From: an uncultured Bdellovibrionales bacterium
Lineage (GTDB): Bacteria > Patescibacteriota > Minisyncoccia > Moranbacterales > GWC2-37-73
Assembly: GCA_964609855.1 (NCBI GenBank)
Contig: CAZSTB010000004.1
Location: 3,740 to 67,739 of the forward strand
Reading direction: 5' to 3'
Length of the DNA: 64,000 nt
The translations under genes were made by a program, and so were the position numbers. Of this stretch, positions 7,942-62,441 are shown piece by piece (positions within the stretch are counted from its first letter, which is position 1; the number at the start of each line of letters is the position of its first letter). The notes beneath the pieces are model-generated. The model saw only the letters and a program-made list of their open reading frames with translations. It did no database searches and was not told where the DNA came from.

Positions 7942-8066
7942 ATATACTGGCGACCCACAGCAGACCACTGATAAAAAATTTCAGCGATTTTGCGTAAATC
8001 GAATTTACAAAGATAAATTATTCTAAGCTTATTATACACCAATTGCGACATTTTTTGAATATTAAA

Positions 8067-8096
8067 AAGAATTACGTAATTAATTACGTAATTCTT
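8067..8096. repeat. Perfect 30-bp palindrome AAGAATTACGTAATTAATTACGTAATTCTT (copy 1, 3' of the abrB-like gene)
   Basis: The sequence equals its own reverse complement and is identical to the copy at 8348-8377, including 6 bp of 5' flank. Confidence 0.9.
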
Positions 8097-8113
8097 GAAT
8101 CGCAAAAAAGCAG

Positions 8114-8290
8114 TTATTCTTTCCAATCAGAAATGATAATCTTCTTGCGCTCAACTTTCACTGCAACTTTTTGTTTTTCGCGCCAGCCAAGTTCGCGCAT
8201 AATTTCAATAGGCAAAGTCAGCCCTAAGGATTTTGCGCCTATCTTGGTAAGCTTGCGCACATTAGAATCCTCAACTTTTCTTCGTGCCAT
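8114..8290 (-). CDS. AbrB/MazE/SpoVT-family small DNA-binding protein (swapped-hairpin fold); alternative start at 8335
   Basis: MARRKVEDSNVRKLTKIGAKSLGLTLPIEIMRELGW matches the AbrB-type looped-hinge helix domain; flanked by two identical 30-bp palindromes. Confidence 0.6.
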   Translation of the reverse strand: MARRKVEDSNVRKLTKIGAKSLGLTLPIEIMRELGWREKQKVAVKVERKKIIISDWKE

Positions 8291-8347
8291 AATTTTTATT
8301 TTTATACTTAATGCTTCCAGTGTAACATAAATCAATACAAATTAAAA

Positions 8348-8377
8348 AAGAATTACGTAATTAATTACGTAATTCTT
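8348..8377. promoter_or_regulatory. Perfect 30-bp palindrome (copy 2) just upstream of the abrB-like gene; candidate operator
   Basis: Identical to 8067-8096; lies 13 to 58 bp upstream of the two candidate start codons of a putative dimeric DNA-binding protein. Confidence 0.5.
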
Positions 8378-8423
8378 TATTGGAAATTGAAAATTGTAAA
8401 TTGAAAATTTTCGTAATAGCGCC

Positions 8424-10723: not shown

Positions 10724-11275
10724 CTATTCTTCAATTTTAATTCGCTCATCCACAGATAGTGTAGCATAATCTGGAAGTTTTTTCACGTCATCGATTCCCA
10801 TTTTCTTAAGGAAATCAAAAGAAATAGTATAAACATAACCCCGCGTGTCGCGCGGATTATCATTTCTGACAATAAGTCCGCGCAATAACAAGTTACGCAG
10901 CGTATAGGCGCAATTGACTCCGCGAATTTGCTCAATTTCAGGCTTTGAAATCGGACCGCGATAAGCGATGATTGACACTACTTCCATGGCGGAATTTGAA
11001 AGCGAATCCTGCATTTCATTTTTAACCAAATTTTCAACGTAAATACTGTTATCAGGATCTGAAACCAATTGTACTTCGTCAGCATTAATAAGGAGCTTTA
11101 ATCCACTTTCAGACTGACTGTATTTTTCCTGTAAGGCAATTATGCACTCTTCAATTAAGTCATTGTCTTGCTCTAAAATTTTAACAAGCTTACGTTTTTT
11201 AAGCGGCTCGCCACTGACAAATAACATACTTTCGATCACGGACATCAATTTATCTTTTTCCATATTTTTATGCAT
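10724..11275 (-). CDS. scpB: Segregation and condensation protein B
   Basis: SVIESMLFVSGEPL N-terminus and tandem winged-helix organisation typical of ScpB; adjacent to scpA. Confidence 0.85.
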   Translation of the reverse strand: MHKNMEKDKLMSVIESMLFVSGEPLKKRKLVKILEQDNDLIEECIIALQEKYSQSESGLKLLINADEVQLVSDPDNSIYVENLVKNEMQDSLSNSAMEVVSIIAYRGPISKPEIEQIRGVNCAYTLRNLLLRGLIVRNDNPRDTRGYVYTISFDFLKKMGIDDVKKLPDYATLSVDERIKIEE

Positions 11276-11377
11276 TAATTTTCATTTTTCAATTTACAAT
11301 TTTCAATAAATTCTAACTTTTAAAATTTTCAAACACAATTCCTGCTTATTGAAAATTCATTGAAAATTGAATATTGG

Positions 11378-12091
11378 TTATTGAGAATTGTCTTTGTGTT
11401 TTAAGCTGATTTCACTAAATAACTCTCCCTGTTCAACATGAATAATCCGTTGCTTAACAAGTTCCAGCATTGCTAAAAAGGAAACTACGATCTCCACTTT
11501 GTCTTTAGCATCCGCAACAAGTTGAGAGAAAGATGATTGTACTCTTACGCGCAGTGTTTCCTGAAGATGCACGATTCTGTCTTCTAGAGTCAAAACTTCT
11601 TTCACAATATCTTCGTCCAATTTCTCAGCAACCGGAATCTCACCTAAAACGCGATTAAATGCCTTTGCTAAATCCTGACTGGTAATATCTTTTGGCGGAT
11701 AAAAAACTACTGATAATCCAAGAAAACCTTCTCGCGAAAAACTTGCAGCCGGGGATTGGAAAATTATTTCCAAGTTTTTAGCTGCATCCTTGAATTTTTT
11801 ATATTCTGCCAGCTGATGCTCTAAATCTTTTATTTCTTCCTCTTCCTCTTCCGTAAATTGTAAAAGTGGTAATAATGCCTTTGACTTGATTAAAATCAGG
11901 CGCGTTGCAATATTTAAGAAATCTGCCAGATGCGACAAACTGACGTCTTTTGCGGAAGAAATATATTCCAGATATTGATCAGTGATCTTGGCCAAGCTGA
12001 CGCGAGTAATGTCCAACTTTTCCTGCTCAGTAAGTTGCAAAAGCAAATCCAGCGGTCCCTCAAATTGTTCCAACTTAATATTATAAAGCAT
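11378..12091 (-). CDS. scpA: Segregation and condensation protein A (kleisin)
   Basis: LEQFEGPLDLLLQLTEQEKLDITRVSLAKITDQYLEYI N-terminal kleisin motif. Confidence 0.85.
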   Translation of the reverse strand: MLYNIKLEQFEGPLDLLLQLTEQEKLDITRVSLAKITDQYLEYISSAKDVSLSHLADFLNIATRLILIKSKALLPLLQFTEEEEEEIKDLEHQLAEYKKFKDAAKNLEIIFQSPAASFSREGFLGLSVVFYPPKDITSQDLAKAFNRVLGEIPVAEKLDEDIVKEVLTLEDRIVHLQETLRVRVQSSFSQLVADAKDKVEIVVSFLAMLELVKQRIIHVEQGELFSEISLKHKDNSQ

Positions 12092-15636: not shown

Positions 15637-15871
15637 AATGGATGTGTAAATTTATAACACTTAATATGCTAAGCATACCTGATATAAAGGGAAAAAGCAA
15701 GAATATTTAACAATTTTCAATTTTCAGTTCTCAATTATCATTGAATTTCCATTTTTTAATTTTCGAAACAAATTTAATAAATTAATCATTGATTAATTGA
15801 GATTTCATTGGAAATTGAAAATTGATTATTGAAAATTTGGAGACAAGATAATTAACTCAGCACATAATTCA

Positions 15872-16744: not shown

Positions 16745-16938
16745 ATTTAAAAAATAATTTTTAATTTTTAATTTTTAATTTCGAATGAATGTATTAATTC
16801 TTTAATACTTAAAACATTCTGAAATTAGAAATTGAATCGAAATTTTTGCTCCAGGCTTATCCCTTGGGGACAAAATTCAAAATTGGAAATTCAAAATTAC
16901 TTACATAATGCTAAAAGATTAACCGTATTTAGGCAAGT

Positions 16939-18363: not shown

Positions 18364-18423
18364 TGTCATTCCCGCAAAGCAGGAATCCAGGCCCTAGATT
18401 CTGAATCAAATTCAGAATGACAA
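18364..18423. repeat. GC-rich palindromic repeat, family A copy A1 (TGTCATTCCCG...GGAATCCAGGCCC...GAATGACA)
   Basis: 8-bp terminal inverted repeats TGTCATTC/GAATGACA; internal hairpin ATTCTGAAT-CAA-ATTCAGAAT; shares modules with copies at 37305, 39739, 41357. Confidence 0.7.
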
Positions 18424-20245: not shown

Positions 20246-20456
20246 TACTTGAGCCTTTTCCTTCTCCATCTGATTCGATCCAACTTATCCGTGGTGCGCT
20301 TCTGCAATTACCTTTCCAACATAAAGTCCAAGTCCTGTGCCGCCAACGTGAAGACGTGAAACGTCCTTGCTCGCCTCGATTCGACAAGACGTATCATTGA
20401 GTCGAAGCGGGTCGACGCGAGGCAGGCCGCGTGAGAATTTTTTGAAAAGATATGAA
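20246..20456 (-). pseudogene. Fragment of a histidine-kinase 3' end (HATPase_c C-terminus), interrupted by a 62-bp GC-rich palindromic insertion at 20368-20429
   Basis: Nucleotide-level similarity to the 3' ends of the HK genes at 26545.. and 29601.. (...GCCAACGTGAAGACGTGAAACGTC...GAAAAGATATG...); the insertion replaces about 7 bp. Confidence 0.7.
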
Positions 20457-22000: not shown

Positions 22001-22130
22001 GACATCCTCCTTGGATAATACTAGTAAAGAGCAATAAATAAACTTCCATGAATGCTAATAATATCTAAGCACATTAGTTCTATTTTTGCAAACAAAAAAG
22101 AAATTTATTTACACTACGTGCTCCACAGGT

Positions 22131-22370
22131 ATCTCAATAATAAATCTGCTTCCTAATCCGTTCGCCGTCGGATTCAACCCAGATTTACCTCAGAGTGAAT
22201 TTATTCTGCTTCCGGGGCTTGGCCGTGATGCGCTTCAGCAATAGCCTTGCCAACATAGAGTCCAAGACCTGTGCCACCTACGTGAAGACGTGATACGTCC
22301 TTTCACGTGAAAACTTTTTGAAAAGATATGGAATTTCTTCTCTTGGAATGCCGGTTCTTGTGTCGGAAAC
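22131..22370 (-). pseudogene. Second histidine-kinase 3'-end fragment (about 75 C-terminal codons of an HATPase_c domain)
   Basis: Aligns to the 29615-29860 HK 3' end (ATCTCAATGATAAATCT..., TTGCCAACRTAGAG, CGTGAAGACGTGA, TTGAAAAGATATGGAATTTC) with an internal ~30-bp indel; homology stops abruptly at 22370. Confidence 0.7.
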
Positions 22371-22409
22371 GCACCTTAACTCCCTAGAAAGGTGGTGATT
22401 CGTGGGAGG
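22370..22409. repeat. ~38-bp direct-repeat motif, left copy (CGCACCTTAACTCCCTAGAAAGGTGGTGATTCGTGGGAGG)
   Basis: About 90% identical to 26001-26037 in the same orientation; degenerate third copy at 22591-22620. Confidence 0.7.
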
Positions 22410-26080: not shown

Positions 26081-26536
26081 TTAAAAAGAAGGTGCATTGT
26101 AACCATATAATTCAATATATTTTAGAAAATTTGACCTGCTTGCTAGTGATAAATCTTCAGGATTAATTTCAGACAATTCAATCCACCTAACCTCATCACA
26201 TTTACCAGGCTCCATTGTTTTTGCTTCGCCAGAAATGTGTTTTGCAATGTACGTTGTTGTCACCCAGTGTTGTCCCTCTTCTTCTATTATATGATCAACA
26301 ATTTCAAGAAGTTTTAGGATTTCTATTTCGATATCATTTTCTTCTCTTACTTCCCTTTTTATAGCATCTTCCAATTTCTCACCAAAATCAACTCCACCAC
26401 CAGGAAACTCCCAAAGCCCTCTTTCATTTCTAGCCAAGTTTCCTCTTTTTGATACTATAACTTTTCTTTCATCATTGAAGACTATCGCTCCAACGCCCAC
26501 GCCTATATAGTCTTTGCCTTTTTTCATATTTTTCAT
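26081..26536 (-). CDS. Nudix hydrolase (MutT-like)
   Basis: Nudix box GGGVDFGEKLEDAIKREVREENDIEI. Confidence 0.8.
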   Translation of the reverse strand: MKNMKKGKDYIGVGVGAIVFNDERKVIVSKRGNLARNERGLWEFPGGGVDFGEKLEDAIKREVREENDIEIEILKLLEIVDHIIEEEGQHWVTTTYIAKHISGEAKTMEPGKCDEVRWIELSEINPEDLSLASRSNFLKYIELYGYNAPSF

Positions 26537-26544
26537 AAATTTGT

Positions 26545-28128
26545 TTAATCCACATGCTCAACTGGAATTTCAATAATAAATCTTGAGCCTTTTCCTTCTC
26601 CGTCTGATTCAACCCACATTTTACCATGATTAGCTTCAACTACTTTCTTGCCGAAATATAATCCGAGTCCGGTTCCGGTGGATGTTAATCTTTTCTGATT
26701 ACTTCCACGTGAGAATTTACCAAATATATTTCCCAGATCTTCTTTCGGAATACCAATTCCAGTGTCAGAAACAGTTATGCGCACCGCCTTAGCTTGCAGC
26801 TTAGCGCTGACAATGACACTCCCCGCTTTCGTGTATTTTAGAGAGTTATCAACAAGATTAGAAACGGCTTCAAAAATCTTACCTCGGTCTATCGAGACTA
26901 GTGGCAATGATTTTTTAGGAAGCTCAAGTGATAACTTTAAGTCCTTCTCCTTAGCTGAAAGTTCGAATGAATCAACAATTTCCTTTAAGATATTTTCAAT
27001 TTTCTCATTTTTAAATTCGAAAACCATTCTTCCAGATTCAATTCTCGAAATATTCAAAAGATCTTCAACCAAATGAAGCAGTCGATTGTTAGCATTGCTG
27101 ATTCTATCCAAAGGATGCTTTAATTCCTCAGGAATTACTCCATAATTTCCCTCAGAGATGAGTGATAAAAACCCTTTCGAGGTAGTTAACGGTGTCCTTA
27201 ATTGATGAGATGCGATTGAGATAAATTCCGATTTCGCTTCATCAAGTTTTCGAAGTTGCGCATTGGCAATTTCAAGTTCTTCTTTTCTCAATACTTCTTC
27301 CCTAACAGATTTTATCAAAAGGTAACCGAATATAATCGAAAATACAAGCATCACGATTGCCGCGGAAAACTCATAAAATCCCTTTGTTATGAATATTTCT
27401 ATAGTTAAGAATATCCAAAGTGAAAAGGTAAATAATTCTGTTGTAATTATTTTTACATTTAAAAAATGGTATTTCAATATCGCCAAGAAAATAATAAATC
27501 CAAATACTGAGGTATACACTGGAGCTAAAATTGTAAGGTAAAAAATTCCCAACAATGGTAAAATCAAGTTTGTTCCAATAGCTAACAATAAAAAAATGGA
27601 AATTCCCAACAGAAGAAGCTGCATGGAATTTTTTATTTCAGAATTTTTTTCAAAATAATACTTAGTAGAGATACGTATAGCAGCATACGCAAGAGTTCCT
27701 AGCATATATATACTATAAACCAACATACCCCAACCGAATTCCAAATCAACAATTCCATCATTCGGTATAATTTTTTTTATCAACACTGGACTTAAGCTAA
27801 TAGCTAAAACAAAGATAAATAGAATTGCGATAATAGATTTCCACACGCTCTGCATTCGCTGATCTTCAGGGAATGTTTTTGCAAACATCGCTAATCCAGT
27901 GCCAAATATCGCAGTAAAGAAAAAAATTAATTTATTAATCCAAGTAAGTGCATTTATTGAATATTCAAGATTAGAGTAATAATTAGCGATTATCCAACCC
28001 GAGAGACCAATAATTGACCAAAAGAGATATCTTCCCGATAGTGATTTTCTTAAATGAATAGCAATTAAAACTAGTAATAAAAAATTAGCAAAAACACTTA
28101 CTAATAAAGTAATGAACTGTCCATTCAT
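26545..28128 (-). CDS. Sensor histidine kinase with N-terminal 7-8 TM sensor domain (HisKA + HATPase_c)
   Basis: H-box SHQLRTPLTTSKGF; coiled-coil linker; C-terminal G1/G2 boxes (DTGIGIP, GTGLGL). Confidence 0.85.
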   Translation of the reverse strand: MNGQFITLLVSVFANFLLLVLIAIHLRKSLSGRYLFWSIIGLSGWIIANYYSNLEYSINALTWINKLIFFFTAIFGTGLAMFAKTFPEDQRMQSVWKSIIAILFIFVLAISLSPVLIKKIIPNDGIVDLEFGWGMLVYSIYMLGTLAYAAIRISTKYYFEKNSEIKNSMQLLLLGISIFLLLAIGTNLILPLLGIFYLTILAPVYTSVFGFIIFLAILKYHFLNVKIITTELFTFSLWIFLTIEIFITKGFYEFSAAIVMLVFSIIFGYLLIKSVREEVLRKEELEIANAQLRKLDEAKSEFISIASHQLRTPLTTSKGFLSLISEGNYGVIPEELKHPLDRISNANNRLLHLVEDLLNISRIESGRMVFEFKNEKIENILKEIVDSFELSAKEKDLKLSLELPKKSLPLVSIDRGKIFEAVSNLVDNSLKYTKAGSVIVSAKLQAKAVRITVSDTGIGIPKEDLGNIFGKFSRGSNQKRLTSTGTGLGLYFGKKVVEANHGKMWVESDGEGKGSRFIIEIPVEHVD

Positions 28129-28828: not shown

Positions 28829-29592
28829 AATCCCCCCTTTTTGATTGTAAAGTCATAAGTATCAAAGAACAATATATTTGGAACAGTTACGGGTTTTTCA
28901 TTTCTGATCACAAATGAAATAACCTGACTGGAAACCATTGCTGCAACCAATGCAACCGAGGAGGAAATGCTTGGCATTGACATTTCGCCACCCAAAACTT
29001 TCTCGAGCATCTCATTTGAGATATATGCAGGAACCTCTGGCATATATTTCATTGCATCGATACTACTATCATTTTCATTATATTCAAAATATTCTTCAAA
29101 TGTCATTCCACTAGGATCAAAACAAAGAGTGCTTGAACCCCATCCAATATTAGCACCCATAAAAACAAATTTATTCTGGATTCTTGCTTCTTTCGCCAAC
29201 ATTACAGATATTTCAGGCACTGAATATTCAATTTCATCAATAATTATGTCAGAGTAATTCACAAACTCTTTTACATTCTCTTCGGTGATGCCCTGATTAA
29301 AAACCACCACCTTAATGTCTGGATTAATTTTTCGCAGCTCCTGAGCAACAACTTCTGCTTTATTCTTACCCAATGTTTCAGAATTTGAACCAAACTGCCT
29401 ATTTATATTTTGTACTTCAAAAAACTCAGGGTCTGCTAAGATTATCGTTCCAACTCCAAAACGAGCAAGTCTTTCAGCCAGAAGACCACCATCCCCACCC
29501 GCACCAGCAATTGATATTGAAAGTTTTGATATTTTTTCTTGCTGCCATTCAGTAACGAAACCTATATTTCTTTCAAATAGTTTATTTTTCAT
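28825..29592 (-). CDS. ThiF/MoeB/HesA-family E1-like adenylyltransferase (no CxxC zinc motif)
   Basis: Nucleotide-binding motif IAGAGGDGGLLAERLARFGVGTIILADPEFFEVQNINRQ. Confidence 0.75.
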   Translation of the reverse strand: MKNKLFERNIGFVTEWQQEKISKLSISIAGAGGDGGLLAERLARFGVGTIILADPEFFEVQNINRQFGSNSETLGKNKAEVVAQELRKINPDIKVVVFNQGITEENVKEFVNYSDIIIDEIEYSVPEISVMLAKEARIQNKFVFMGANIGWGSSTLCFDPSGMTFEEYFEYNENDSSIDAMKYMPEVPAYISNEMLEKVLGGEMSMPSISSSVALVAAMVSSQVISFVIRNEKPVTVPNILFFDTYDFTIKKGGL

Positions 29593-29600
29593 AAATTTGT

Positions 29601-31325
29601 TTATGCCACATGCTCCACTGGAATCTCAATGATAAATCTTGAACCGAGGTCGGCGCCATCAGATTCAACCCAGACTTGGCCGTGGTGGGCTTCGGCGATT
29701 GCTTTGCCAACGTAGAGCCCGAGGCCGGTTCCGCCAACGTGAAGACGTGAAACGTCTTTTCCACGTGAGAATTTCTTGAAAAGATATGGAATTTCCTCCC
29801 TTGGGATTCCTATTCCAGTATCAGAAACTGTGATGCGAACCATCTGACCAAATTCAGATTTCTTCTCCGGAATAACGAAACCATTTTCATCGATCAAAAC
29901 TCCAGTTTCTTTAAGCTCAGCCTTTACGGTCACACCGCCCTTTTCCGTATATTTCAACGCATTATCAATGAAATTAGAAACCAGCTCTCTAATCTTAGTA
30001 TAATCCATGATAATTTCAGGCAGTGGGGTTTCGGGAAGCTTTAAGTCAAGATAAAACTTTTTCGTTTTTGCTATCAAAATGAAGTTATCATTTAATTCCT
30101 TGATGAGTTTTTCAACATTGGATTTTTCAAAAGCAAATTGCATACGTCCCGATTCAATTCGAGAGACATTGAGCAAATCTTCAATTAAACTCACTAAACG
30201 CTCAGAAGATGAATAAACTTTTTCCATTGCCCCCTTAACGCTTTCGGTTAATTCTCCATATGAACCCTCGAGCAAAAGTGAAGCAAATCCCTTGATTGCC
30301 GTAATCGGAGTTCTGAGTTGATGAGAAGCAATTGAGATAAATTCAGTTTTCGCATTATCCAACTTCCTAAGCTGATCATTCGCCGTAGCTAATTTATCAG
30401 CCATTGCCTGAAGTTGCTCCTTGCGTTCAACTTCTTGCTTGACAGACCTAATGAGCATATATCCAAAGCCAAGGGATAACGCTAGCGTCACTCCAGTTAA
30501 AACCATCGCCGTAGTGTTTTGAACGAAGAAGAATTGTGAACCGACAAGCAAAATCATGGAGACTACCAATGCTTGTGCACCAATTAGCTTTATTTCAAAT
30601 GTTTTATATTTAACAATCATATAAGCAAGGAAAGCCACAAAAATAGGCATTCCAAAAAGCTTATACTGCTCAAACTTCCAATCAAGCTCCATTGTAATAA
30701 GAAAGTTTCCAATTGAAAAAGTTATCAACAAAATCACAATTCCCAAGGTAAAAAGCAAAATTTGCTTCTTATGTGCTACTTCAGCCTTTTTGTATCCCCT
30801 TATGGTAACTCCCGCTATCCATAAAATCAAAAGAATTTCCACAATATAAATATATATCCAAAGTGGCCCCTCAAAAGCCGCCCTATCGCAATTCGTTAAA
30901 TCATAGCCCAATAAATTATAGCGAGTATGCGTTAAAAAAATAACCGGCAAAAAAACCAAACTTACCAATATTTTCTTAAGAAAAGAAATGTCCGTGCCGT
31001 AAACAAATAAATAAGTTAAGTACAGAGCTGCTGCATACATAAGAAGCTCTAATGGAGCCATTGCTGACCAAAAAAACATGATGTATTGATCTTTTTCGCT
31101 TGCCCATAATATCAAATCAAAATAAACCCACAATGAAAACACAACTGTTAAAAAAAACAAAATTTTGTTTATCAACTCTTTTCTTCCTTTAAAAAAAACG
31201 AAGAAGCCAATAATCAAAGATAGAATAAGAGGTACCAAATGAGAATAGTAAATCAAGGGCTCATACACATTTGCTGAAAAAATAAGGAATTTCGCAGCAT
31301 CCCAATTACAAGATAGTGGATCCAT
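29601..31325 (-). CDS. Sensor histidine kinase with N-terminal multi-TM sensor domain (paralogue of 26545..28128)
   Basis: H-box SHQLRTPITAIKGF; HATPase_c G-boxes; same architecture and linker (QLRKLDxAKxEFISIASHQLRTP) as the other HK. Confidence 0.85.
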   Translation of the reverse strand: MDPLSCNWDAAKFLIFSANVYEPLIYYSHLVPLILSLIIGFFVFFKGRKELINKILFFLTVVFSLWVYFDLILWASEKDQYIMFFWSAMAPLELLMYAAALYLTYLFVYGTDISFLKKILVSLVFLPVIFLTHTRYNLLGYDLTNCDRAAFEGPLWIYIYIVEILLILWIAGVTIRGYKKAEVAHKKQILLFTLGIVILLITFSIGNFLITMELDWKFEQYKLFGMPIFVAFLAYMIVKYKTFEIKLIGAQALVVSMILLVGSQFFFVQNTTAMVLTGVTLALSLGFGYMLIRSVKQEVERKEQLQAMADKLATANDQLRKLDNAKTEFISIASHQLRTPITAIKGFASLLLEGSYGELTESVKGAMEKVYSSSERLVSLIEDLLNVSRIESGRMQFAFEKSNVEKLIKELNDNFILIAKTKKFYLDLKLPETPLPEIIMDYTKIRELVSNFIDNALKYTEKGGVTVKAELKETGVLIDENGFVIPEKKSEFGQMVRITVSDTGIGIPREEIPYLFKKFSRGKDVSRLHVGGTGLGLYVGKAIAEAHHGQVWVESDGADLGSRFIIEIPVEHVA

Positions 31326-33659: not shown

Positions 33660-34440
33660 TTCTTTCCCCTACATGGTCCGGAGTTCTTCCCCGATTTATT
33701 CCTCCAACAAATACTTCTGCAAGTTCTTTTTTTCTTTCATGTGAAATGCATTACTCTCAACAAATCTCCTGTAATCATCAGCGTCATCAAATTGACTGAG
33801 AATGATATTTCCATCATATCTAGAAGCACCGCTTTTTGGGACGTAGCCGGCAAAACTCGAATAGGGCCAGCTGACGGAGTTCTTCTCCGATTGCATGTGA
33901 ATGAAATAGTTCAAATTTACGTATGCTGATAAATATAAAAGATAAGCATTCGAATCTATATGAATTGCCTTGAATTTCCCTTGGAATAAAGCTCCGGATC
34001 GTTTTTGTTTGATGTTGAAATAATTAGTGTAGCCCGTGCCGATCTTTTGCATGAATGACACAACTCCGCCATCTTGCTTCTGCTTTATGATTAAATGAAA
34101 GTGGTTGGGATTCAAGCAATAACAAACGATTTCAACCAACTCATTTGCAAATAAGGGTGCGGAGTCGAACTCCGATTTCGGAGTTCGACTCCGCAACAAT
34201 CTTTCTTCTCTTAACATGCCAGAGTTAAAATCAGACATGGCACCGAGAAATCTGTCGTAATCACTGGCATCCGAAAAAATCATGCGCTTATCCACGCCGC
34301 GATTATACACATGATAATATTCATCAGTAATAAATTGTATTTTTCTTGATGGCATAGAATTTATTTCCACGGAGTTCCACGGAGTTCTTCTCCGATTAAT
34401 TTGAAGCATTTTAAAAGAGCATTTCTGCTCTTTTATCTTT
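33660..34440. mobile_element. Candidate minimal IS200-like element: the transposase gene plus flanking/overlapping GGAGTTCTTC(Y)CCGATT repeats and a terminal hairpin
   Basis: Motif copies at 33681-33697, 33887-33902, 34381-34397; tandem CACGGAGTTC x2 at 34367-34386; hairpin AAAAGAGCA-TTTC-TGCTCTTTT at 34412-34433; element boundaries are inferred. Confidence 0.35.
33696..34409 (-). CDS. HuH Y1 tyrosine transposase, IS200/RAYT (REP-associated tyrosine transposase) family
   Basis: YHVYNRGVDKRMIFSDASDYDRFLG (RAYT N-terminal block), HuH motif NHFHLII, C-terminal YLLYLSAYVNLN (cf. YLxxLxRYIHxNP with catalytic Tyr). Confidence 0.7.
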   Translation of the reverse strand: MLQINRRRTPWNSVEINSMPSRKIQFITDEYYHVYNRGVDKRMIFSDASDYDRFLGAMSDFNSGMLREERLLRSRTPKSEFDSAPLFANELVEIVCYCLNPNHFHLIIKQKQDGGVVSFMQKIGTGYTNYFNIKQKRSGALFQGKFKAIHIDSNAYLLYLSAYVNLNYFIHMQSEKNSVSWPYSSFAGYVPKSGASRYDGNIILSQFDDADDYRRFVESNAFHMKEKKNLQKYLLEE

Positions 34441-37068: not shown

Positions 37069-37304
37069 ATTTAAACGAATTCATAAGAATCTACTACTGC
37101 AATGCTCTGCAGCTTAATTATATCAAAATAAGTAAATTCAGACTATTTTTTAAAGAGCACGGTTGTCATGTGTTTATTTAATCAACCATCAATTGCAAAC
37201 AGACAGCGGATTTTAATCAATGCGAGCCTGGATTCCCTTTTTCAATGGAATGACAATGCGGATAAAATACTAAATCTAAATTTCCAAAGTCAAATAAAAT
37301 ACTT

Positions 37305-37385
37305 CCTTGTCATCCTCAGCTTGACTGGGGATCCAGGTTTTATAAATACAGGGCCTGGATTCCCGTTTTCACGGGAATGACAAGG
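37305..37385. repeat. GC-rich palindromic repeat, family A copy A2 (CCTTGTCATCCTCAGCTTGACTGGGGATCCAGG...CCTGGATTCCCG...GGGAATGACAAGG) with partial re-duplication at 37437-37466
   Basis: 9-bp terminal inverted repeats; modules shared in reverse orientation with 39739-39855. Confidence 0.7.
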
Positions 37386-37522
37386 ATCATGTATTTATCA
37401 TGCTCGCGCGACCAATGGAAGTGCCCTTGTGATAAACGCGGGGATCCCAGGTTTATAAATATTAGCAAAAATAAAAAAAGCCCGTGGATATTTCCACAGG
37501 CAATTAAAAAGCATTGAGCTAG

Positions 37523-39573: not shown

Positions 39574-39580
39574 AGGCAGG

Positions 39581-39655
39581 ATTTAGGATGTGGGAATTAG
39601 GCATTAAGAATTAGGAACTAGGACTTAGGAGTTAGGAATTAGGAATTAATAATCA
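39581..39655. repeat. Tandem heptamer array (about 10 units of ATTAGGA-like: ATTTAGGA TGTGGGA ATTAGGC ATTAAGA ATTAGGA ACTAGGA CTTAGGA GTTAGGA ATTAGGA)
   Basis: Seen directly. Confidence 0.8.
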
Positions 39656-39738
39656 ATTATTTATTTTCCTCGCTCATGTCATGCTCATGTCGGGTTCATC
39701 TGCCGATAGGCAGTAATATTTTAGAGAAATCTTAAATA

Positions 39739-39855
39739 AAAACCTGGATCCCCAGCCCGTCTCGAATCGGCGAATGAATGAGAGCCGAGGCGGATCAAGC
39801 TGAGGATGACATATACGAATTGTCATTCCCGACTCGATCGGGAATCCAGGCCCGT
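39739..39855. repeat. Composite GC-rich repeat A3, joining family-A modules (GGGGATCCAGG, GTCAAGCTGAGGATGACA, TGTCATTCCCG..CGGGAATCCAGGCCC) with a family-C core (GCCCGTCTCG...GCCGAGGCGGATC)
   Basis: Module-by-module matches to 37305-37385 (reverse orientation), 18364-18423 and 43385-43420. Confidence 0.65.
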
Positions 39856-39939
39856 ATTTTAATAATATTAACTCAGTCAATTTATTAAAATAAAAATACA
39901 CCAGCAATGTGCTGGTGTATTTTAAATAAGCCAAGTATC

Positions 39940-41349
39940 TTACTTCAAGTTTTTCGCAAAAAATACTGGGAGCCCAGAAATCTTAATTCTTTCCTGCTTC
40001 ATCGTGTCGCGGTCGCGAACAGTCACAGTTTCATCTTCCAAAGAATCGAAGTCGACAGTTATGCAATAAGGAGTTCCGATTTCATCTTGGCGGCGATATC
40101 TTTTTCCCACATTTCCATTGTCATCAAACTCGCACATGAAATCCATTTTCAAAGTGTTGAAAATTTCCTTTGCCTTTGCCACCAATTCAGGTTTGTTTTT
40201 CATGAGCGGGAAAACAGCAACCTTGATCGGTGCGAGTCTTTTGTCCAATTTAAGAACTGTTCTCGTGTCGCCATCGTTGTCCTCAATAGTGTAAGCCTTA
40301 TCAATAAACATCAAAAACAAACGAGCTAGTCCGACTGAAGTTTCCATAATATGAGGAATAAACTTCTCACCAGTTTTTTCATCGAAATAGGTAAGGTCAA
40401 CTCCGGAAAACTTACTGTGTTGTGAAAGATCCCAATCGCCGCGAGCATGAATTCCTTCAACCTCCTTGAATCCTCCCAGTGACTTGAAATTATATTCCAC
40501 ATCATAAGCCTCGGATGCATAGTGAGCTAATTTTTCATGTTCATACCATCTGATATCTTCAGGAGCCATTCCGTATTCAAGATACCAATTCCAGCGCACT
40601 TGTTTCCAGTCATCATATTTATCTTTCATAATGCTTGGATGCAGGAAGTATTGCATTTCCATTTGTTCAAACTCGCGTGTGCGGAAAATGAATTGGCGAG
40701 CCACGATTTCATTACGGAAAGCTTTTCCAACCTGAGCAATACCAAACGGAAGTTTCACGCGCGTAGAATCAATCGTGTTTTTATATTCAAGATAAATACC
40801 ACCGCAAGTTTCCGGACGAAGGTAAACCACATTTTCTTCACTAAGCGCATCGGTTGGAGAGCCAAGATTTGATTTCACCATCAAGGAAAATCTTTTTGCT
40901 GGAGTCACATCAGTCGATCCACAATTTTGACACTTGAGTTTTCCCGCCTCGCGTAGCTTATCAAGCTCAGCATTAATATGTTCCAAGGGAGCCTTATCTA
41001 CACCTTGCACGCCATGAGCTTCCAAAACGTGATCAGCACGCATGCGAGCATTGCATTTTCTGCAATCAATCTGCGGGTCGTCAAAACTATCGATGTGCCC
41101 GGAAGCTTTCCAAGTCGTTGGATGCATAAAAATCGCACTGTCGAGTCCGACAATGTCTTCCCTATATTGCACCATGTGCTTCCACCAAGCATCACGAATA
41201 TTATTCTTTAAAAGTGCTCCGTAATGACCATAGTCATAGATAGCAGCAAAACCTCCATAAATTTCAGAGGATGGAAAAACAAAACCCCTTCTCTTACAAA
41301 GAGAAACGATATCTTCGATTGTTGTTGAAACTTTTTTTTCTTCGCTCAT
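39940..41349 (-). CDS. glyQS: Glycyl-tRNA synthetase, alpha2 homodimeric (GlyQS) type
   Basis: N-terminus RRGFVFPSSEIYGGFAAIYDYGHYGALLKNNI and class II core motifs. Confidence 0.9.
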   Translation of the reverse strand: MSEEKKVSTTIEDIVSLCKRRGFVFPSSEIYGGFAAIYDYGHYGALLKNNIRDAWWKHMVQYREDIVGLDSAIFMHPTTWKASGHIDSFDDPQIDCRKCNARMRADHVLEAHGVQGVDKAPLEHINAELDKLREAGKLKCQNCGSTDVTPAKRFSLMVKSNLGSPTDALSEENVVYLRPETCGGIYLEYKNTIDSTRVKLPFGIAQVGKAFRNEIVARQFIFRTREFEQMEMQYFLHPSIMKDKYDDWKQVRWNWYLEYGMAPEDIRWYEHEKLAHYASEAYDVEYNFKSLGGFKEVEGIHARGDWDLSQHSKFSGVDLTYFDEKTGEKFIPHIMETSVGLARLFLMFIDKAYTIEDNDGDTRTVLKLDKRLAPIKVAVFPLMKNKPELVAKAKEIFNTLKMDFMCEFDDNGNVGKRYRRQDEIGTPYCITVDFDSLEDETVTVRDRDTMKQERIKISGLPVFFAKNLK

Positions 41350-41356
41350 ATAATTT

Positions 41357-41456
41357 TGTCATTCCGACCGCAGTGGAGCCTGCCTGCCGGTAGGCAGGGA
41401 ATCTAAGCCATTAACCCAGATCTCTCGATTCCGCTTCGCTTCACTCGAGATGACAT
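41357..41456. repeat. GC-rich palindromic repeat A4 (TGTCATTCC...GCCTGCCTGCCGGTAGGCAGGGAATC...GAGATGACA)
   Basis: Terminal TGTCAT/ATGACA; internal CTGCCGG(T/C)AGGCAG palindrome also present in 43462-43486 and 39709-39724. Confidence 0.65.
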
Positions 41457-41459
41457 TAA

Positions 41460-42036
41460 AAATAATAATTAAAAACAAAAAAACTCGTCCTGTGCATACC
41501 AAAATGATTGATATGTACGGGACGAGTTATTCTCGCGGTTCCACCCGACTTCCCCCGCCGAGGCGGAGACAACTTTTCTAGTCAGTTAGATTTGCTTTAT
41601 ACAAGCGAAAAGGTGCCACCCTCCTCATCTCACTCACTTCATCTATTATACTCCCTTTAAGGCTAAATGTCAACTGTCTCTTGACAAATTAACCTAATGA
41701 TACTACAATTGACTTTTATGTTAATACTTTCGGTGTAGTTGGTGCCCTCGTGCGCAAGATTGCCTTCATTGTATCTAAACATAAAACAGATGGATAAACT
41801 ACCATTTGTGTTGCAGTCGCTTAAGGCTCAACAAATTTAATTTTTTTATTTTCAAGCGGAGCGAGCGAATTGAAAGTGGGTTTTCAATGTAAACTATAGA
41901 AATTTACTTATTTCTATAGTGAATGAGGAAGATCTTTCAATTCTGAGCGAGCGCAGAAAATATGCTAATATGTTTAGATACTCAAGAAAAAATCGCTATT
42001 ACAGCGAGCTTTTCTTGTGGGTCTTGTACTACATAA
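41460..42036 (+). promoter_or_regulatory. Long ORF-free 5' leader region of the DEAD-box helicase gene with several inverted repeats (e.g. CTCGTCC...GGACGAG at 41495-41537)
   Basis: About 570 bp without an ORF upstream of a cold-shock-type helicase; inference from architecture. Confidence 0.3.
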
Positions 42037-43260: not shown

Positions 43261-43334
43261 TCTCAGCTTCCACAAATATAGCCAAGAAAAAAGCAACGCC
43301 TTTTACGGTGTTGCTTTTTTTGTTGCTTTAAATT

Positions 43335-43558
43335 TAAAATAAAAGGTATTAACCCCGGGGCAAGCCCCGAACCCCTTGGGTTTCCGCGGCCCGTCTCGCC
43401 CTAGGCTTGCCGAGGTGGACCTGTCTCGTTTGGCACTCGCCAAGGCGGGCAAGCCGCGAGGTACCTGCCTGCCGGCAGGCAGGTTAAACCTATTTGATGT
43501 CATCACTCGCTCGGAAACGAAAATTCATTTTCATTTCGCTCGACTTCGTTCGACAATA
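43335..43558. repeat. GC-rich ~220-bp repeat, family C copy C1
   Basis: About 85-90% identical over ~160 bp to 50243-50402 (AAAAGGTATYAACCCC...GCAAGCCCCGAACC...GGGTTTCCGCGGCCCGTCTCGCCC...GGCTTGCCGAGGTGGACC...CGAAACRAAAATTCATTTTCRTTTCGCTCGACTTCGTT); contains the CCTGCCTGCCGGCAGGCAGG palindrome. Confidence 0.8.
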
Positions 43559-43670
43559 ATCTCCTATTAAAATTCAAATTAGTTTGAAAAGAAATTCTTT
43601 TATTGCTCGCTACGAATATTATCCTGCATCCCATGTACTACAGCATGTAGAAAGGAGGTGAATAAAACAT

Positions 43671-43889
43671 ATGGCAAATCAAAATAGAGGGTTGGCTAGC
43701 GCAGATGAAAAAACTAGACGTGAAGTTGCTAGAAAAGGCGGTCAGGCCGTAAGTCAAGACAGACAACATATGTCTGAAATTGGTAGAAAAGGTGGTCAGA
43801 CCGTAAGTCAGGACAAAAGGCATATGTCTGAAATTGGAAAGAAAGGTGGCGAAGCCTCACACTCTGGAGGTCGCCCATCGAATAGATAA
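43671..43889 (+). CDS. KGG-repeat general stress protein (YciG-like)
   Basis: Three (K/R)KGGQ(A/T)VSQD(R/K)(Q/R)HMSEIG(R/K)KGG repeats; strong RBS AAGGAGGTG 8 nt upstream. Confidence 0.6.
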   Translation: MANQNRGLASADEKTRREVARKGGQAVSQDRQHMSEIGRKGGQTVSQDKRHMSEIGKKGGEASHSGGRPSNR

Positions 43890-49574: not shown

Positions 49575-50249
49575 ATGAAGATTCTTATCGTTGAAGACCA
49601 GGAAAAATTAGCCAAACTCATTCAAAAGGGGCTTATTCTTGAGGGTTTTAGTGCTGATTACGTTCTGGACGGCGAAGAGGCCGCAAATCGCATTGCGGTT
49701 CATCATAGCGAGTATGATCTTATTATTCTGGATTACATGTTGCCCAATAAAAGCGGCCTGGAGATTTGCAGTCAAACAAGAGAAAGAAAAATTGCGATTC
49801 CGATTCTCATGTTAACCGGCAAAGATGCCTTGCCTGACATTACAGCTGGTTTAAATTCCGGCGCTGATGACTATCTCACTAAACCTTTTTCCTTTGACGA
49901 ACTAGTTGCCAGAATTAGAGCCATTTTACGCAGACCAAAAATAACTCTGCCATCCACGCTACAGATTAAACATGTTCAACTCGATCCTCTTGCTAAAATT
50001 GTCACCTGCAATAAAAAACTTGTAAGCTTAACTCTACGAGAATTCAGCCTCTTGGAATATTTAATGCGTCATGGCGACGAAGCACTTTCACGCGAAACCA
50101 TTCTTTCTGGCGTATGGGATTTTGCGTTTGATTCATTCGCTAATGTCGTAGATGTACATATTGCCAATTTAAGAAAAAAACTTGGAGATCTTGATGGTAA
50201 GATAATTGAGACAGTGCGTGGTATCGGATATAAGATGAATACAAAATAA
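49575..50249 (+). CDS. OmpR/PhoB-family response regulator (REC + winged helix)
   Basis: MKILIVEDQ...LIILDYMLP...ADDYLTKPF receiver; C-terminal LTLREFSLLEYL...VRGIGYKM wHTH; start set at internal Met 49575. Confidence 0.85.
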   Translation: MKILIVEDQEKLAKLIQKGLILEGFSADYVLDGEEAANRIAVHHSEYDLIILDYMLPNKSGLEICSQTRERKIAIPILMLTGKDALPDITAGLNSGADDYLTKPFSFDELVARIRAILRRPKITLPSTLQIKHVQLDPLAKIVTCNKKLVSLTLREFSLLEYLMRHGDEALSRETILSGVWDFAFDSFANVVDVHIANLRKKLGDLDGKIIETVRGIGYKMNTK

Positions 50250-50402
50250 AAGGTATCAACCCCTGAGCAAGCCCCGAACCTTCTGGGTTTCCGCGGCCCG
50301 TCTCGCCCGAGGCTTGCCGAGGTGGACCCGTCTCGCCTGACGCTCGGGTAGGCAGCGAAACAAAAATTCATTTTCGTTTCGCTCGACTTCGTTTGAAGAT
50401 AA
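50243..50402. repeat. GC-rich repeat, family C copy C2
   Basis: See 43335-43558; the two overlapping long ORFs over it (50069..50407 and 43303..43506) share translated sequence only because of the repeat. Confidence 0.8.
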
Positions 50403-52028: not shown

Positions 52029-52961
52029 CTATTCTCCGTGCGCTATCTTACCTAGCAATGAATCCAGATCCTCCTGGGAATAAAATTCGATTACGATCTT
52101 TCCTCCATCGCCTGCCTTAGAAATTTTCACCTTAGTTCCCAGTGCTTCCACTAAAGTGTTCTCGAGAGCTTTCATTTGAGGGTCACTTCCAGCCTTTCGC
52201 TGATATGATTTCACGGAAGTTTCCTTTGCGCGCTCCTCTACCTGGCGCACGGTAAGATTATTACTCAAAATCATTTCATACATAGCGCGTTGTTTTTCCG
52301 CATTAGAAAGAGATAGAATCGCTTTCGCATGTCCTTCGGTTATCTTTCCATCTATCAAACCTTTTTGAACCTCAATAGGCAGCGTAAGCAGACGCATTTT
52401 GTTAGCAACTAATGAGCGGCTTTTCCCCATCTTTGTTGCCACTTCTTCTTGTGTCATCTGAAATTCATCAGCAAGCTTCTGATAAGCTTTTCCTTCTTCA
52501 ATTGCATTAAGGTCATGTCGCTGAATATTTTCAATGATTGCAAGCTCCAATTTTTGCAGTTCGTCAGCTTCTCGAATAATAACAGGCACTTTCTTGAGTC
52601 CAACTCTCTTGGAAGCTTGAAAACGACGCTCACCAGCGATCAATTCATAATGATTGCCTTTCCTGCTGACAATCAAGGGCTGGATAATTCCGTGCATTTT
52701 GATAGATTGAGCAAGACTTTCAAGTTTCTCATCATCAAAAGTATGGCGAGGCTGCATAGGATTTGCGACAATCTGATTGACATCAACTTCAATCACGTAA
52801 CTATCACCCCTGATAACTTCGTCATTATTTTTAACCATTGGACGCGCAACCGCTACTGTGTCTTGAACCTGACTATCTTGAGCAGATGTTGCTTGTGTGT
52901 CTACTTGTTTATTTGGAATAAGCGACGAAAGTCCTCTTCCTAGACCGTATTGTTGGGACAT
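52029..52961 (-). CDS. parB: Chromosome partitioning protein ParB/Spo0J
   Basis: ParB box GIIQPLIVSRKGNHYELIAGERRFQASKRVGLKKVPVIIR and HTH. Confidence 0.85.
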   Translation of the reverse strand: MSQQYGLGRGLSSLIPNKQVDTQATSAQDSQVQDTVAVARPMVKNNDEVIRGDSYVIEVDVNQIVANPMQPRHTFDDEKLESLAQSIKMHGIIQPLIVSRKGNHYELIAGERRFQASKRVGLKKVPVIIREADELQKLELAIIENIQRHDLNAIEEGKAYQKLADEFQMTQEEVATKMGKSRSLVANKMRLLTLPIEVQKGLIDGKITEGHAKAILSLSNAEKQRAMYEMILSNNLTVRQVEERAKETSVKSYQRKAGSDPQMKALENTLVEALGTKVKISKAGDGGKIVIEFYSQEDLDSLLGKIAHGE

Positions 52962-53092
52962 AAACTTATTAATTTTAAATTCTAAATTTTAAATTTAAAA
53001 TGAATGATAAATGAACAAATGTTCAAAATCATTTAGCATTTTAGAATTAAAAATTGATTTAAAATTTCAAATTTAAAATTTAAAATTTTTAT

Positions 53093-53893
53093 TTATACTG
53101 TAAGATTTTTCTTTATTTCCGCAGCTTCGGCGTCGTCCCTTTCAATCATTTCTTTAACAAGATTTTTATATGACCTGGCACCTTTGGAAAGACTATCAAA
53201 ACTCAAAATAGATTTTCCATAGCTTGGAGCTTCCGCAAGTCTGACGCTGCGCGGAATCACACTATCAAAAACATGGCCAGGAAAATGATCGCGCATTTCC
53301 TTTACTACCTGCCTTGCCAACCGATTTCTTCTGTCATACATAGTCAGCACAGCGCCCATAATTTTCAGATTTGGCTGCAAGTGCTTCTGCACAAGCTCAA
53401 TCGTCTCTAGAAGTTGACTAAGGCCTTCGAGCGCATAATATTCAGTTTGCACAGGAATCAGCACTGCATCACTGGCAACGAGTCCATTTATAGTCAGCAG
53501 TCCCAAGCTCGGCGGAGAATCGATTATAATATAATCATAGTCACTTCTTATCTGTCTTAATACATCATATAACTTGAATTCTCGATTTTCAAAATGGACC
53601 ATCTCCACACCCGCTCCAGCTAAGTCCTGCGAAGACGGCAAAAGGTCATGCCCGGAATTTTCTGCACGAATAATTACATTCCTAGGATGCTCGCCACTAA
53701 CCAAGGTATGATAAAGACCCTTTTCAAGACTACGGATATCAATACCGAGACCAGAAGAAGCATTTCCTTGTGGATCAAGGTCTACCAATAAAGCTTTTTT
53801 TCCAAAATTAGCCAAATAAGTGGCGATGTTAATAGCGGTGGTAGTTTTACCAACTCCTCCTTTCTGATTTATAAGCGAAATTATTTTAGCCAT
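53093..53893 (-). CDS. parA: Chromosome partitioning ATPase ParA/Soj
   Basis: Deviant Walker A KGGVGKTTTAINIATYLA. Confidence 0.9.
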   Translation of the reverse strand: MAKIISLINQKGGVGKTTTAINIATYLANFGKKALLVDLDPQGNASSGLGIDIRSLEKGLYHTLVSGEHPRNVIIRAENSGHDLLPSSQDLAGAGVEMVHFENREFKLYDVLRQIRSDYDYIIIDSPPSLGLLTINGLVASDAVLIPVQTEYYALEGLSQLLETIELVQKHLQPNLKIMGAVLTMYDRRNRLARQVVKEMRDHFPGHVFDSVIPRSVRLAEAPSYGKSILSFDSLSKGARSYKNLVKEMIERDDAEAAEIKKNLTV

Positions 53894-54112
53894 AACAAAA
53901 AGTAAAATTTGAAATTTTAAATTTGAAATTTTAAATCAAATCCAAATAACCAAATAAGTAAATTTAAAAGCACGTCATGCAAATGCCGACAGGCACACAT
54001 TCATTGTAAATTAAAAATTGAAAATTGAAAATTCCGCGTGCAATCACGTGGGTTTATTGTATCACATTGACAAAATGCTTTCAAATGGATAAACTAGGGT
54101 AGTTGGAATAAT

Positions 54113-61877: not shown

Positions 61878-62330
61878 TCAATCCAGCTTCATGCCACCTC
61901 TTGAATGATGCTTTTTGGCAACTCGTACGCGCGCCATTTCCTTTTCAATAGCAGCCGCAACTTTAGCATATTCCATCTCATTCATGGAAACTTTTTCATT
62001 CTTGATTTCTTCCGCCCTCTTTCTCGCCTCCTCTGCGCGAGTGATATCAATTTCACTAGCCGCCTCAGCAGTATCAGCCAAAACCACTAATTTATTGTCG
62101 TTGAATTCAATAAATCCAGTTGAAACAACAAGCAGGGTTTCAACTCCTTCGGATTTCAGCATGATTTCTCCAGCTTTCAAGGCCGCAATATAGCTGCGAT
62201 GTCCCGGCATGATTGTCACTTGTCCATCCGAAACAGGAAGTGTGGCCTGATCAACTTCAGACTCGAACAAAGTTCGTTCGGGAGTCACGATTTTGAATTT
62301 AATTTTAGTAGACATACGATTAATTTTCAT
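61878..62330 (-). CDS. atpC: F-type ATP synthase epsilon subunit (start may be at MSTKIKF, 62315)
   Basis: KFKIVTPERTLFESEVDQATLPVSDGQVTIMPGHRSYIAALKAGEI beta-sandwich plus C-terminal helical hairpin. Confidence 0.8.
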   Translation of the reverse strand: MKINRMSTKIKFKIVTPERTLFESEVDQATLPVSDGQVTIMPGHRSYIAALKAGEIMLKSEGVETLLVVSTGFIEFNDNKLVVLADTAEAASEIDITRAEEARKRAEEIKNEKVSMNEMEYAKVAAAIEKEMARVRVAKKHHSRGGMKLD

Positions 62331-62441
62331 TTTTCAATTCACAATTTTCATTGAATTTTCAATTTTCAATGTTTGAAAATTTATTCATTGCGAATTTATT
62401 GTAAATTGATCATTGATCATTGGAAATTATGAAATCAAAAA

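Follow-up and report, generated by a model that had tools for sequence, protein, structure and literature searches.

TGTC-tagged hairpin repeats, probably of the CGTC-1/dRS3 class, inserted and multiplied in a Moranbacteria-like genome

Main finding

A family of short hairpin repeats was analysed in the intergenic DNA of contig CAZSTB010000004.1 (positions 3,740 to 67,739), a 64-kb stretch from an uncultured Moranbacteria-like bacterium that is hereafter called the window. Ten units of 29–33 nt each were counted, nearly all of which carry a TGTC tag in front of the stem. Pairs of these units have been inserted into the intergenic DNA of this genome and multiplied there. The repeats probably belong to the TGTC/CGTC-tagged class of repetitive extragenic palindromic (REP) sequences, known under the names CGTC-1, dRS3/NTS, RPE-6, and Ssn-related motifs (SRM), with an Ssn-type enzyme as the likeliest agent of their spread. 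The class itself is already known, and what is new is the host group together with a clean insertion site. The host range of the repeat/nuclease system (NTS/SRM with Ssn) would thereby extend to small-genome candidate-phyla bacteria, and no paper linking these bacteria to such repeats was found in the literature that could be searched. Small-genome candidate-phyla bacteria depend on DNA uptake.

Anatomy of the units

A typical unit comprises an unpaired 5′ TGTC, an 8-bp stem that begins and ends with AT, a loop of 3–5 nt, and an unpaired CCAGG tail (once CTAGG). The first two stem pairs are A–T and then T–A, and each unit is oriented. By a hairpin scan, stems of 8–9 bp starting with AT are present in seven units, six of which have loops of 3–5 nt. 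The tag lies directly 5′ of the stem in all ten units except the degenerate one at 37425, which has TGTG. Among the six units detected by the covariance model R1 (described below), the 3′ tail is CCA in five and CTA in one (18393); the interrupted unit 39748–39810 also has CCA. Stem type A (ATTCCCGN/NCGGGAAT) is followed by a private tail, CCAGGCCC, and stem type B (ATCCTCAG/CTGGGGAT; unit sequence TGTCATCCTCAGCTTGACTGGGGATCCAGG) by an AT-rich tail, CCAGGTTTTATAAATA. Most units are arranged as inverted pairs with the tags outward (three pairs tag-out, one tag-in), and tag-out pairing produces an element of 60–100 nt with TGTCAT...ATGACA ends. The units are as follows.

18364..18391, + strand: unit A, TGTC ATTCCCGC AAA GCAGGAAT CCAGG; left half of the tag-out pair 18364–18422; R1 29.8 bits, E 8.8e-6.
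18393..18422, − strand: variant unit, TGTC ATTCTGAAT TTG ATTCAGAAT CTAGG; right half of that pair, with a perfect 9-bp stem and a tail overlapping that of its left partner; R1 20.5 bits, E 0.0032.
37227..37255, − strand: single unit A, TGTCATTCCATTGAAAAAGGGAATCCAGG; R1 32.1 bits, E 2e-6.
37308..37337, + strand: unit B, TGTC ATCCTCAG CTTGA CTGGGGAT CCAGG(TTTTATAAATA); left half of the tag-out pair 37305–37385; R1 28.6 bits, E 1.9e-5.
37354..37382, − strand: canonical unit A, TGTCATTCCCGTGAAAACGGGAATCCAGG; right half of the pair 37305–37385; R1 47.4 bits, E 1.2e-10.
~37425..37462, + strand: degenerate unit B, CTTGTGATAAACGCGGGGATCCCAGGTTTATAAATA, read by eye; weak fold, tail in common with unit B at 37308; no R1 match.
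39739..39811, − strand: unit B with a 39-nt hairpin module (TCCGCCTCGGCTC...GAGACGGG); half of the tag-in pair; 9-bp stem, 42-nt loop.
39821..39850, + strand: unit A, TGTCATTCCCGACTCGATCGGGAATCCAGG; other half of the tag-in pair; R1 40.1 bits, E 1.3e-8.
41357..41409, + strand: interrupted unit, TGTC ATTCC, then 32 nt including the palindrome CCTGCCTGCCGGTAGGCAGG, then GGAAT CTAAGCC; no R1 match.
41410..41456, − strand: divergent unit, TGTC ATCTCGAG ... CGAGAGAT CTGGG; forms with 41357–41409 a tag-out pair of 100 nt.

The unit at 39739–39811 matches unit B at 37308 over 17 of 17 positions; its 42-nt loop is due to the inserted module, which sits between the loop and the 3′ stem. When folded as single-stranded DNA, the pair 37305–37385 gives −22.3 kcal/mol (z = −7.0) and the pair 39737–39857 about −24 kcal/mol (z about −3.3), while the remaining sites fold less distinctly.

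The first-pass annotation had listed four intergenic copies, and the described sequences were read at each of these sites. It had taken them for single long elements, which turn out to be pairs of the 29–33 nt unit, and it had overlooked the further single unit at 37227–37255 (−). What had been called a partial re-duplication at 37437–37466 is the tail of the degenerate unit at ~37425–37462. The copy given as 39739–39855 is a pair, with tags that face inward and a 39-nt loop insert in one unit; that at 41357–41456 is present too, with both halves divergent or interrupted. As to the description of the copies as GC-rich islands, the units have 52–57% GC (41% at 37227 and 33% at 18393) vs. ~38% for the window.

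The motifs of the units exceed expectation in the window. TGTCATYC occurs 15 times vs. 4.3 ± 2.0 in shuffled sequences, with 9 of the 15 within the repeats, and all six exact copies of GGRATCCAGG lie within the repeats. There are five matches to CTGCCGRYAGGCAG and two to the paired pattern TGTCATYC-N35-65-GRATGACA, with none expected in either case, and TCAAGCTGAGGATGACA occurs exactly twice. The analysis supports the view that these are dispersed intergenic palindromes of the REP or MITE (miniature inverted-repeat transposable element) type, with terminal inverted TGTCAT...ATGACA and mosaic modules.

The same unit in other genomes and viruses

The exact core, TGTCATTCCCG-N4-8-CGGGAATCCAGG, was sought across 185,579 species genomes and is present in at least 120 genome stretches, which by record title fall into about 20 phylum-level groups. 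Those listed include Nitrospirota, alpha-, beta-, and gamma-Proteobacteria, Desulfobacterota, Planctomycetota, Acidobacteriota, Chloroflexota, and Actinomycetes, as well as Verrucomicrobia, Vampirovibrio, Leptospiraceae, Atribacteria, Omnitrophota, and Rickettsia. At least 13 of the core-bearing loci are from Patescibacteria (among them Magasanik-, Falkow-, Buchanan-, Moranii-, Roizman-, Nomura-, and Paceibacteria). Such repeats had been held to be uncommon in candidate phyla; this agrees with the literature searched, but the same unit is common in Patescibacteria sequence data. Stretches of 29 to 31 nt identical to the unit at 37354 are present in loci L021, L024, L048, L094, and L105.

Among the listed loci, 250 units with GTCAT and a hairpin were collected, most of them with an 8-bp stem (221/250), a 4-nt loop (207/250), and a CCA tail (226/250). 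Pairs among the 232 listed units with a CC or CT tail are predominantly tag-out (52, vs. 7 tag-in and 12 tandem). An alignment (A1) and the covariance model R1 were built from 65 distinct foreign units and none from the window. In an unfiltered search of the whole window, R1 detects six units (37354−, 39821+, 37227−, 18364+, 37308+, and 18393−) with E values from 1.2e-10 to 3.2e-3; apart from these, it lists only the palindromic stems again, on the reverse strand, and weak matches at E ≥ 0.1. Compensatory stem changes are seen at five of the eight pairs in A1, while the first two pairs, the GTC 5′ of the stem, and the CCA 3′ of it are constant. Across phyla, the positions G2 T3 C4 A5 T6 ... 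A T C C A do not vary in A1, in part owing to the way the foreign units were gathered (see below).

It might be argued that the similarity arose by chance, or that the copies all belong to one structured RNA gene. In favour of this are the shortness of the motifs and the modest size of some counts (GGRATCCAGG with one mismatch occurs 7 times vs. 4.2 expected). However, the independent model R1 gives E values down to 1e-10, identical 29-mers occur in more than 100 other genomes, and the copies are spread over five distinct intergenic regions, at distances of up to 23 kb and on both strands. The probability of this alternative is negligible, and it is refuted by the foreign core matches and the R1 E values.

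The exact core was also found in 54 viral contigs. Some predicted viral contigs, IMGVR_UViG_3300038336_000082 (loci L145, L153, and L167) and IMGVR_UViG_3300038335_000131 (L137 and L168), carry at least four exact TGTC units, and no Ssn or Y1 gene was found in the parts of them that were analysed. Phages may be carriers of the TGTC repeat between hosts.

Insertion and multiplication in the Moranbacteria-like genome

Homologs of GlyRS place the organism among Moranbacteria-like Parcubacteria. The glyQS gene is preceded by a T-box leader at 41515–41719 (−), which scores 44.6 bits (E 1.7e-7) vs. the Rfam gathering score of 93. Its core GGGTGGAACCGCG and terminator hairpin are conserved in relatives L122, L123, L124, and L128, and the Rfam threshold may under-call T-boxes in Parcubacteria-type genomes. 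The closest relative, L122, whose GlyRS is 92% identical, shares the T-box leader, yet the 100-nt pair is missing ahead of glyQS. At this empty site, the terminator runs directly into ...TTTTTTAA|ACAATATGG, whereas the filled site of the window reads ...TTTTTAA, then TGTCATCTCGAG...GGAATGACA, then AAATTATATG, with 100 nt between. Since the site is empty in L122, the pair 41357–41456 is a discrete insertion bounded by TGTC...GACA. The filled and empty sites thus identify the inverted pair, bounded exactly by TGTC...GACA, as the unit of insertion, one that is tolerated inside the T-box leader of an essential gene. No units were found in 102.6 kb of loci from seven relatives.

Multiplication is indicated by the tails. 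The CCAGGCCC tail follows three of the four A units of the window vs. 2 of 129 foreign units, and the longer AT-rich tail CCAGGTTTTATAAATA is common to the B units. Such private tails, shared among window units, point to copying within this genome. As to the features expected of a MITE, the inverted TGTCAT...ATGACA ends are present, and the window holds no parent insertion sequence (IS). All five or six insertion sites are non-coding, and non-coding DNA makes up ~16% of the window. The neighbouring genes are, as had been claimed, proS, glyQS, and genes for a Nudix hydrolase and a lipoprotein (LFGC lipobox); glyQS and the lipoprotein gene are each bracketed by units.

An alternative is a role at the RNA level, in which the hairpins would act in transcripts as terminators, as mRNA stabilisers, or as elements of the 5′ leader that modulate the translation of proS and glyQS. 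One pair stops 7 nt short of the glyQS start codon and another 13 nt short of that of proS. The pair at 41357 lies in the leader of glyQS, after the T-box terminator and ahead of the ATG, and must therefore be transcribed on read-through; many REPs are considered to be transcribed by Di Nocera et al. (PMC3733652). On the other hand, the units occur equally on both strands and lack U tracts, and the same genes in close relatives are expressed without the insert. Adjacent genes have canonical terminators of their own (37480–37501 and 39893–39923), and for this reason a terminator role of the units was rejected. Rfam searches over the repeat regions, at gathering and permissive thresholds, gave no family for the units and only the sub-threshold T-box. 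Furthermore, SsnA, the nuclease considered below, does not bind the RNA form of the unit (PMC11893778), and the conservation of the unpaired GTC and CCA over about 20 phyla argues for a protein–DNA site rather than for host-specific RNA roles. An RNA-level role is thus unlikely.

For annotation, the units merit masking or labelling, as they break short-read assemblies and spawn spurious small open reading frames (ORFs) such as 39674–39934. Repeat units make up most of the ORFs 39674–39934 (−, 86 aa) and 39778–39888 (+, 36 aa), with peptides such as ...GPGFPIESGMT... and ...ELSFPTRSGIQ...; both ORFs are almost certainly spurious and of the kind to which this repeat class typically gives rise. 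A public short-read contig from the same organism, L001 (SRR446577), is 100% identical to window positions 39782–41404, and both of its ends fall inside units, as is expected for multi-copy repeats.

Relation to known classes of repeat

Among the closest described counterparts are the CGTC-tagged REPs, in which CGTC is often TGTC, stems are of 8–9 bp and start with AT, loops are of 4–5 nt, the tail is CCA, and dimers with the tags outside (“HH”) predominate; they have no associated transposase (PMC3733652). The CGTC-1 family has been equated with Neisseria dRS3 and Rickettsia RPE-6 (Di Nocera, De Gregorio & Rocco 2013, BMC Genomics 14:522; PMC3733652). The window units share with CGTC-1 REPs the tag, the AT-starting 8-bp stem, the loop, the CCA tail, and the predominance of tag-out pairs; they are likewise intergenic, form occasional mosaic clusters, and have no transposase gene at their flanks. 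The differences are in the host, which is Patescibacteria (Moranbacteria-like) here while the list in that paper comprises five phyla and no member of the candidate phyla radiation (CPR) (PMC3733652); in the mixed stems (ATTCCCGN, ATCCTCAG, and ATTCTGAAT) for only about ten copies; and in the 32–39 nt modules inside the hairpins of two units.

The Neisseria repeat has been redefined as a 28-nt sequence, NTS, CGTCATTCCCGCGMAVGCGGGAATCYRG, and generalised to the SRM (Chenal et al. 2025, Nat Commun 16:2388; PMC11893778). The window units have the same core (TGTCATTCCCGTGAAAACGGGAATCCAGG vs. CGTCATTCCCGCGMAVGCGGGAATCYRG), including the conserved GTC that precedes the stem and the C that follows it, and, like NTS/SRM, they cluster on either side of genes (the lipoprotein gene and glyQS). 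The function in natural transformation comes from work on Neisseria.

Other classes are resembled in part. REPINs and bacterial interspersed mosaic elements (BIMEs), with their REP-associated tyrosine transposases (RAYTs), represent the GTAG REPs of Pseudomonas and E. coli. The window repeats resemble them in that hairpin units form inverted doublets acting as the inserted unit, are intergenic, and show genome-specific amplification. They differ in the tag, which is TGTC and not GTAG, and in that the Y1 gene of the window is unflanked by units and falls below the threshold of the RAYT model. The NIMEs of Neisseria are mosaic intergenic arrays bounded by dRS3. At 37.2–41.5 kb, TGTC units are likewise interleaved with other short repeat modules; the window arrays are, however, much smaller, and the modules CCTGCCTGCCGGYAGGCAGG and CCCGTCTCG...CCGAGGYGG are unrelated to Neisseria RS elements.

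The kinship with dRS3 also bears on the possibility that the units are attachment or target sites for a site-specific recombinase or an IS110-type element. dRS3, which has the same core, is a documented target of the phage recombinase in Neisseria filamentous prophages (cited in PMC11893778), and units are present in viral contigs. Nevertheless, no recombinase, integrase, or IS110-like gene was found among the 24 window ORFs scanned (Pfam/NCBIfam), and no unit is broken by a large insert, only by hairpin modules of 32–39 nt. We regard this explanation as quite improbable.

Ssn-type nucleases as candidate agents of spread

SsnA is a 94-aa GIY-YIG protein that binds the unit solely as single-stranded DNA, on one strand only, and cuts a few bases 5′ of it; mutagenesis has shown that cutting depends critically on the three bases that precede the stem, and binding on the C that follows it (PMC11893778). 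The RNA form is not bound, and the experiments on strand-specific binding and cleavage were made with the Neisseria and Wolbachia enzymes (PMC11893778). The invariant positions of A1 coincide with those needed by SsnA.

Homologs were sought with the Ssn ORF of locus L089 (tblastn) and with a hidden Markov model (HMM) of the family built from 120 sequences. An Ssn gene lies near units in six listed genome loci (L089, L101, L009, L026, L077, and L096). In L089, the gene is bracketed on both sides by unit pairs. L096 is a CPR contig (Magasanikbacteria, WJJZ01000006.1) with an Ssn C-terminus at 3–83 and a unit at 90–118; as it carries Ssn beside a unit, CPR bacteria do encode Ssn. The top 120 Ssn homologs are mostly Ignavibacteria-like proteins, with no named CPR members among them.

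Because the recognition positions are shared and a CPR example exists, we infer that an Ssn-type enzyme may act on the window copies. Such an enzyme, encoded elsewhere in the genome or since lost, would recognise the units on single-stranded DNA, which would arise during replication or when DNA is taken up from outside, and it would be the likeliest agent of unit spread.

Several points weigh against assigning the repeats to this class with Ssn as their spreader. No cd10448-type or Ssn-like ORF or pseudogene was found in the 64-kb window (tblastn, and the family HMM in six frames at E up to 10), nor was one found in the loci of the relatives. Ssn is nearby in 6 of the at least 120 listed unit-bearing genome loci and in none of the 54 viral loci, and most units are therefore far from the gene. 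Movement of the repeats by Ssn has been put forward in print as a hypothesis, on the grounds of the IS-like unit–ssn–unit layout. No window unit is within one mismatch of NTS CGTCATTCCCGCGMAVGCGGGAATCYRG, the best, TGTCATTCCCGTGAAAACGGGAATCCAG, differing at three positions. Only the unit 37355–37382 fits the strict SRM pattern HGTCWYN(0-2)YYVSBRHN(0-5)WNVSBRGN(0-2)RNCYNB (0.11 expected in shuffled sequences), and the others fall outside it because their loops or stems vary. Collection of the foreign units relied on a hairpin filter and a required GTCAT and, for the alignment, a CC or CT tail, so that their 99% pairing and the invariance of those positions are partly by construction. Finally, a target-site duplication is not clearly readable at the single filled/empty pair.

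A more specific proposal, which we put forward only tentatively and consider doubtful, is that the tag-out TGTC pairs are non-autonomous mobile elements moved in trans by Ssn-type GIY-YIG nucleases. By cutting 5′ of each unit, on opposite strands, Ssn would define both outer boundaries of a pair. If true, this would be a transposition chemistry distinct from the Y1/RAYT route, and it would explain how one 29-mer is nearly unchanged across about 20 bacterial phyla and phages. The Moranbacteria-like genome would then represent a recent burst, as suggested by the filled and empty sites relative to the 92%-identical relative, the private tails, and the modules nested in the loops.

The Y1 gene at 33696–34409

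The first-pass annotation had joined the repeats to a RAYT-family transposase gene at 33696..34409 in a REP/RAYT system, in which the Y1 (IS200-like, “RayT”) protein would recognise and spread the TGTC hairpins. RAYTs are thought to spread GTAG REPs and REPINs. The ORF 33696–34409 (−) indeed encodes a Y1/HUH protein (Pfam Y1_Tnp 27.2 bits vs. a cut-off of 23) with the HFH and Tyr motifs, and it belongs to a large Parcubacteria family, some homologs of which are labelled “REP element-mobilizing transposase RayT” by JGI. Furthermore, hairpins of single-stranded DNA are what Y1 enzymes act on, and only 3–7 kb separate the gene from the repeat cluster.

The link nevertheless fails on several counts. 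No TGTC unit flanks 33696–34409, and the protein scores 23 bits against the 80-bit cut-off of the NCBIfam RAYT model NF047646. A profile of the Y1 family has no significant match to solved structures (the best being ISDra2 TnpA, E 0.8) and none to the solved E. coli RAYT; a PDB sequence search with the protein itself gave nothing significant. No Y1 homolog was found in 828 kb of the at least 120 listed unit-bearing genome loci or in 497 kb of unit-bearing viral loci. The units also lack the GTAG tag, and no transposase is linked to CGTC REPs (PMC3733652).

Moreover, the Y1 gene has a different hairpin of its own, AATCGGAGAAGAACTCCG (18 nt), on both sides and in direct orientation. The 18-mer CGGAGTTCTTCYCCGATT, a 5-bp hairpin, occurs just upstream of the gene, inside it (33875), and just downstream of it, spanning 33679–34397 in the window. 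A perfect 26-nt palindrome with a CGGAGTTC core lies at 34164–34189, and six of the eight CGGAGTTC sites of the window are in this 720 nt. A 91%-identical Y1 homolog from another sample (L183) has the same hairpin flanks (2643–2660 and 3340–3357), and no TGTC unit is present in the 13 kb of that locus. Direct orientation on one strand is the look of IS200/IS605-type ends, and the AATCGGAGAAGAACTCCG hairpins are probably the Y1 element’s own ends. The Y1 gene is a separate small element and not the mobiliser of the TGTC units, so that the RAYT link is largely refuted and the REP/RAYT system highly improbable. The nearby “RayT” label is not to be read as naming the mobiliser of the units.

Mosaic modules and other repeats in the window

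Two units contain extra hairpin modules inside the stem-loop, and these modules recur elsewhere in the window. The CCTGCCTGCCGGYAGGCAGG module is found at 41376, at 43460, and, in shortened form, at 39700, and the CCCGTCTCG...CCGAGGYGG module at 39757, 43390, and 50298. This mosaic resembles the intergenic arrays around Neisseria dRS3, though the partner modules differ. Two palindromic modules lie outside the units.

39700..39713, no strand: isolated palindromic module CTGCCGATAGGCAG, adjoining the 39739 pair.
43460..43482, no strand: palindromic module CCTGCCTGCCGGCAGGCAGG, the same as that inside the 41357 unit, within the 64-nt insert of a second GC-rich repeat.

The second GC-rich repeat is present in two copies 85% identical, 43331–43560 and 50238–50402 (+), each directly 3′ of a + strand gene, one for a DEAD helicase and the other for a response regulator. 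It harbours the CCCGTCTCG...CCGAGGYGG module. The 64-nt insert is in the first copy, and the stems contain G–T pairs on the + strand only. Rfam gave no match for either copy.

Many intergenic regions contain AT-rich phased repeats (AATTGAAAATTG and TTTAAAATTT, with a period of ~5–11 nt), which are found on both strands and frequently form inverted pairs (3600–3740, 8350–8410, 11270–11390, 15710–15840, 16750–16900, 52960–53095, 53900–54035, and 62320–62440); these may be elements upstream of promoters or curved DNA. The 8-mer TTAGGAAN is repeated about nine times in tandem at 39575–39650, in a 600-nt gap upstream of the lipoprotein gene, and a comparable TTAACGAA/TTAACTCG array is found in the glyQS leader of relative L123 (7545–7620). 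A perfect 31-nt inverted repeat, AAAGAATTACGTAATTAATTACGTAATTCTT, at 8066–8096 and 8348–8378 brackets the small ORF 8043–8330. A tandem 54-nt repeat (83% identical) at 43721–43828 lies inside a small ORF with repeated ...RKGGQ.VSQD..HMS... segments, whose product looks like a KGG-type stress protein. Finally, DNA blocks 60–90% identical at 20248–20454, 22101–22383, 26527–26785, and 29583–29841 are common to several histidine-kinase-like genes, paralogs within a short span.

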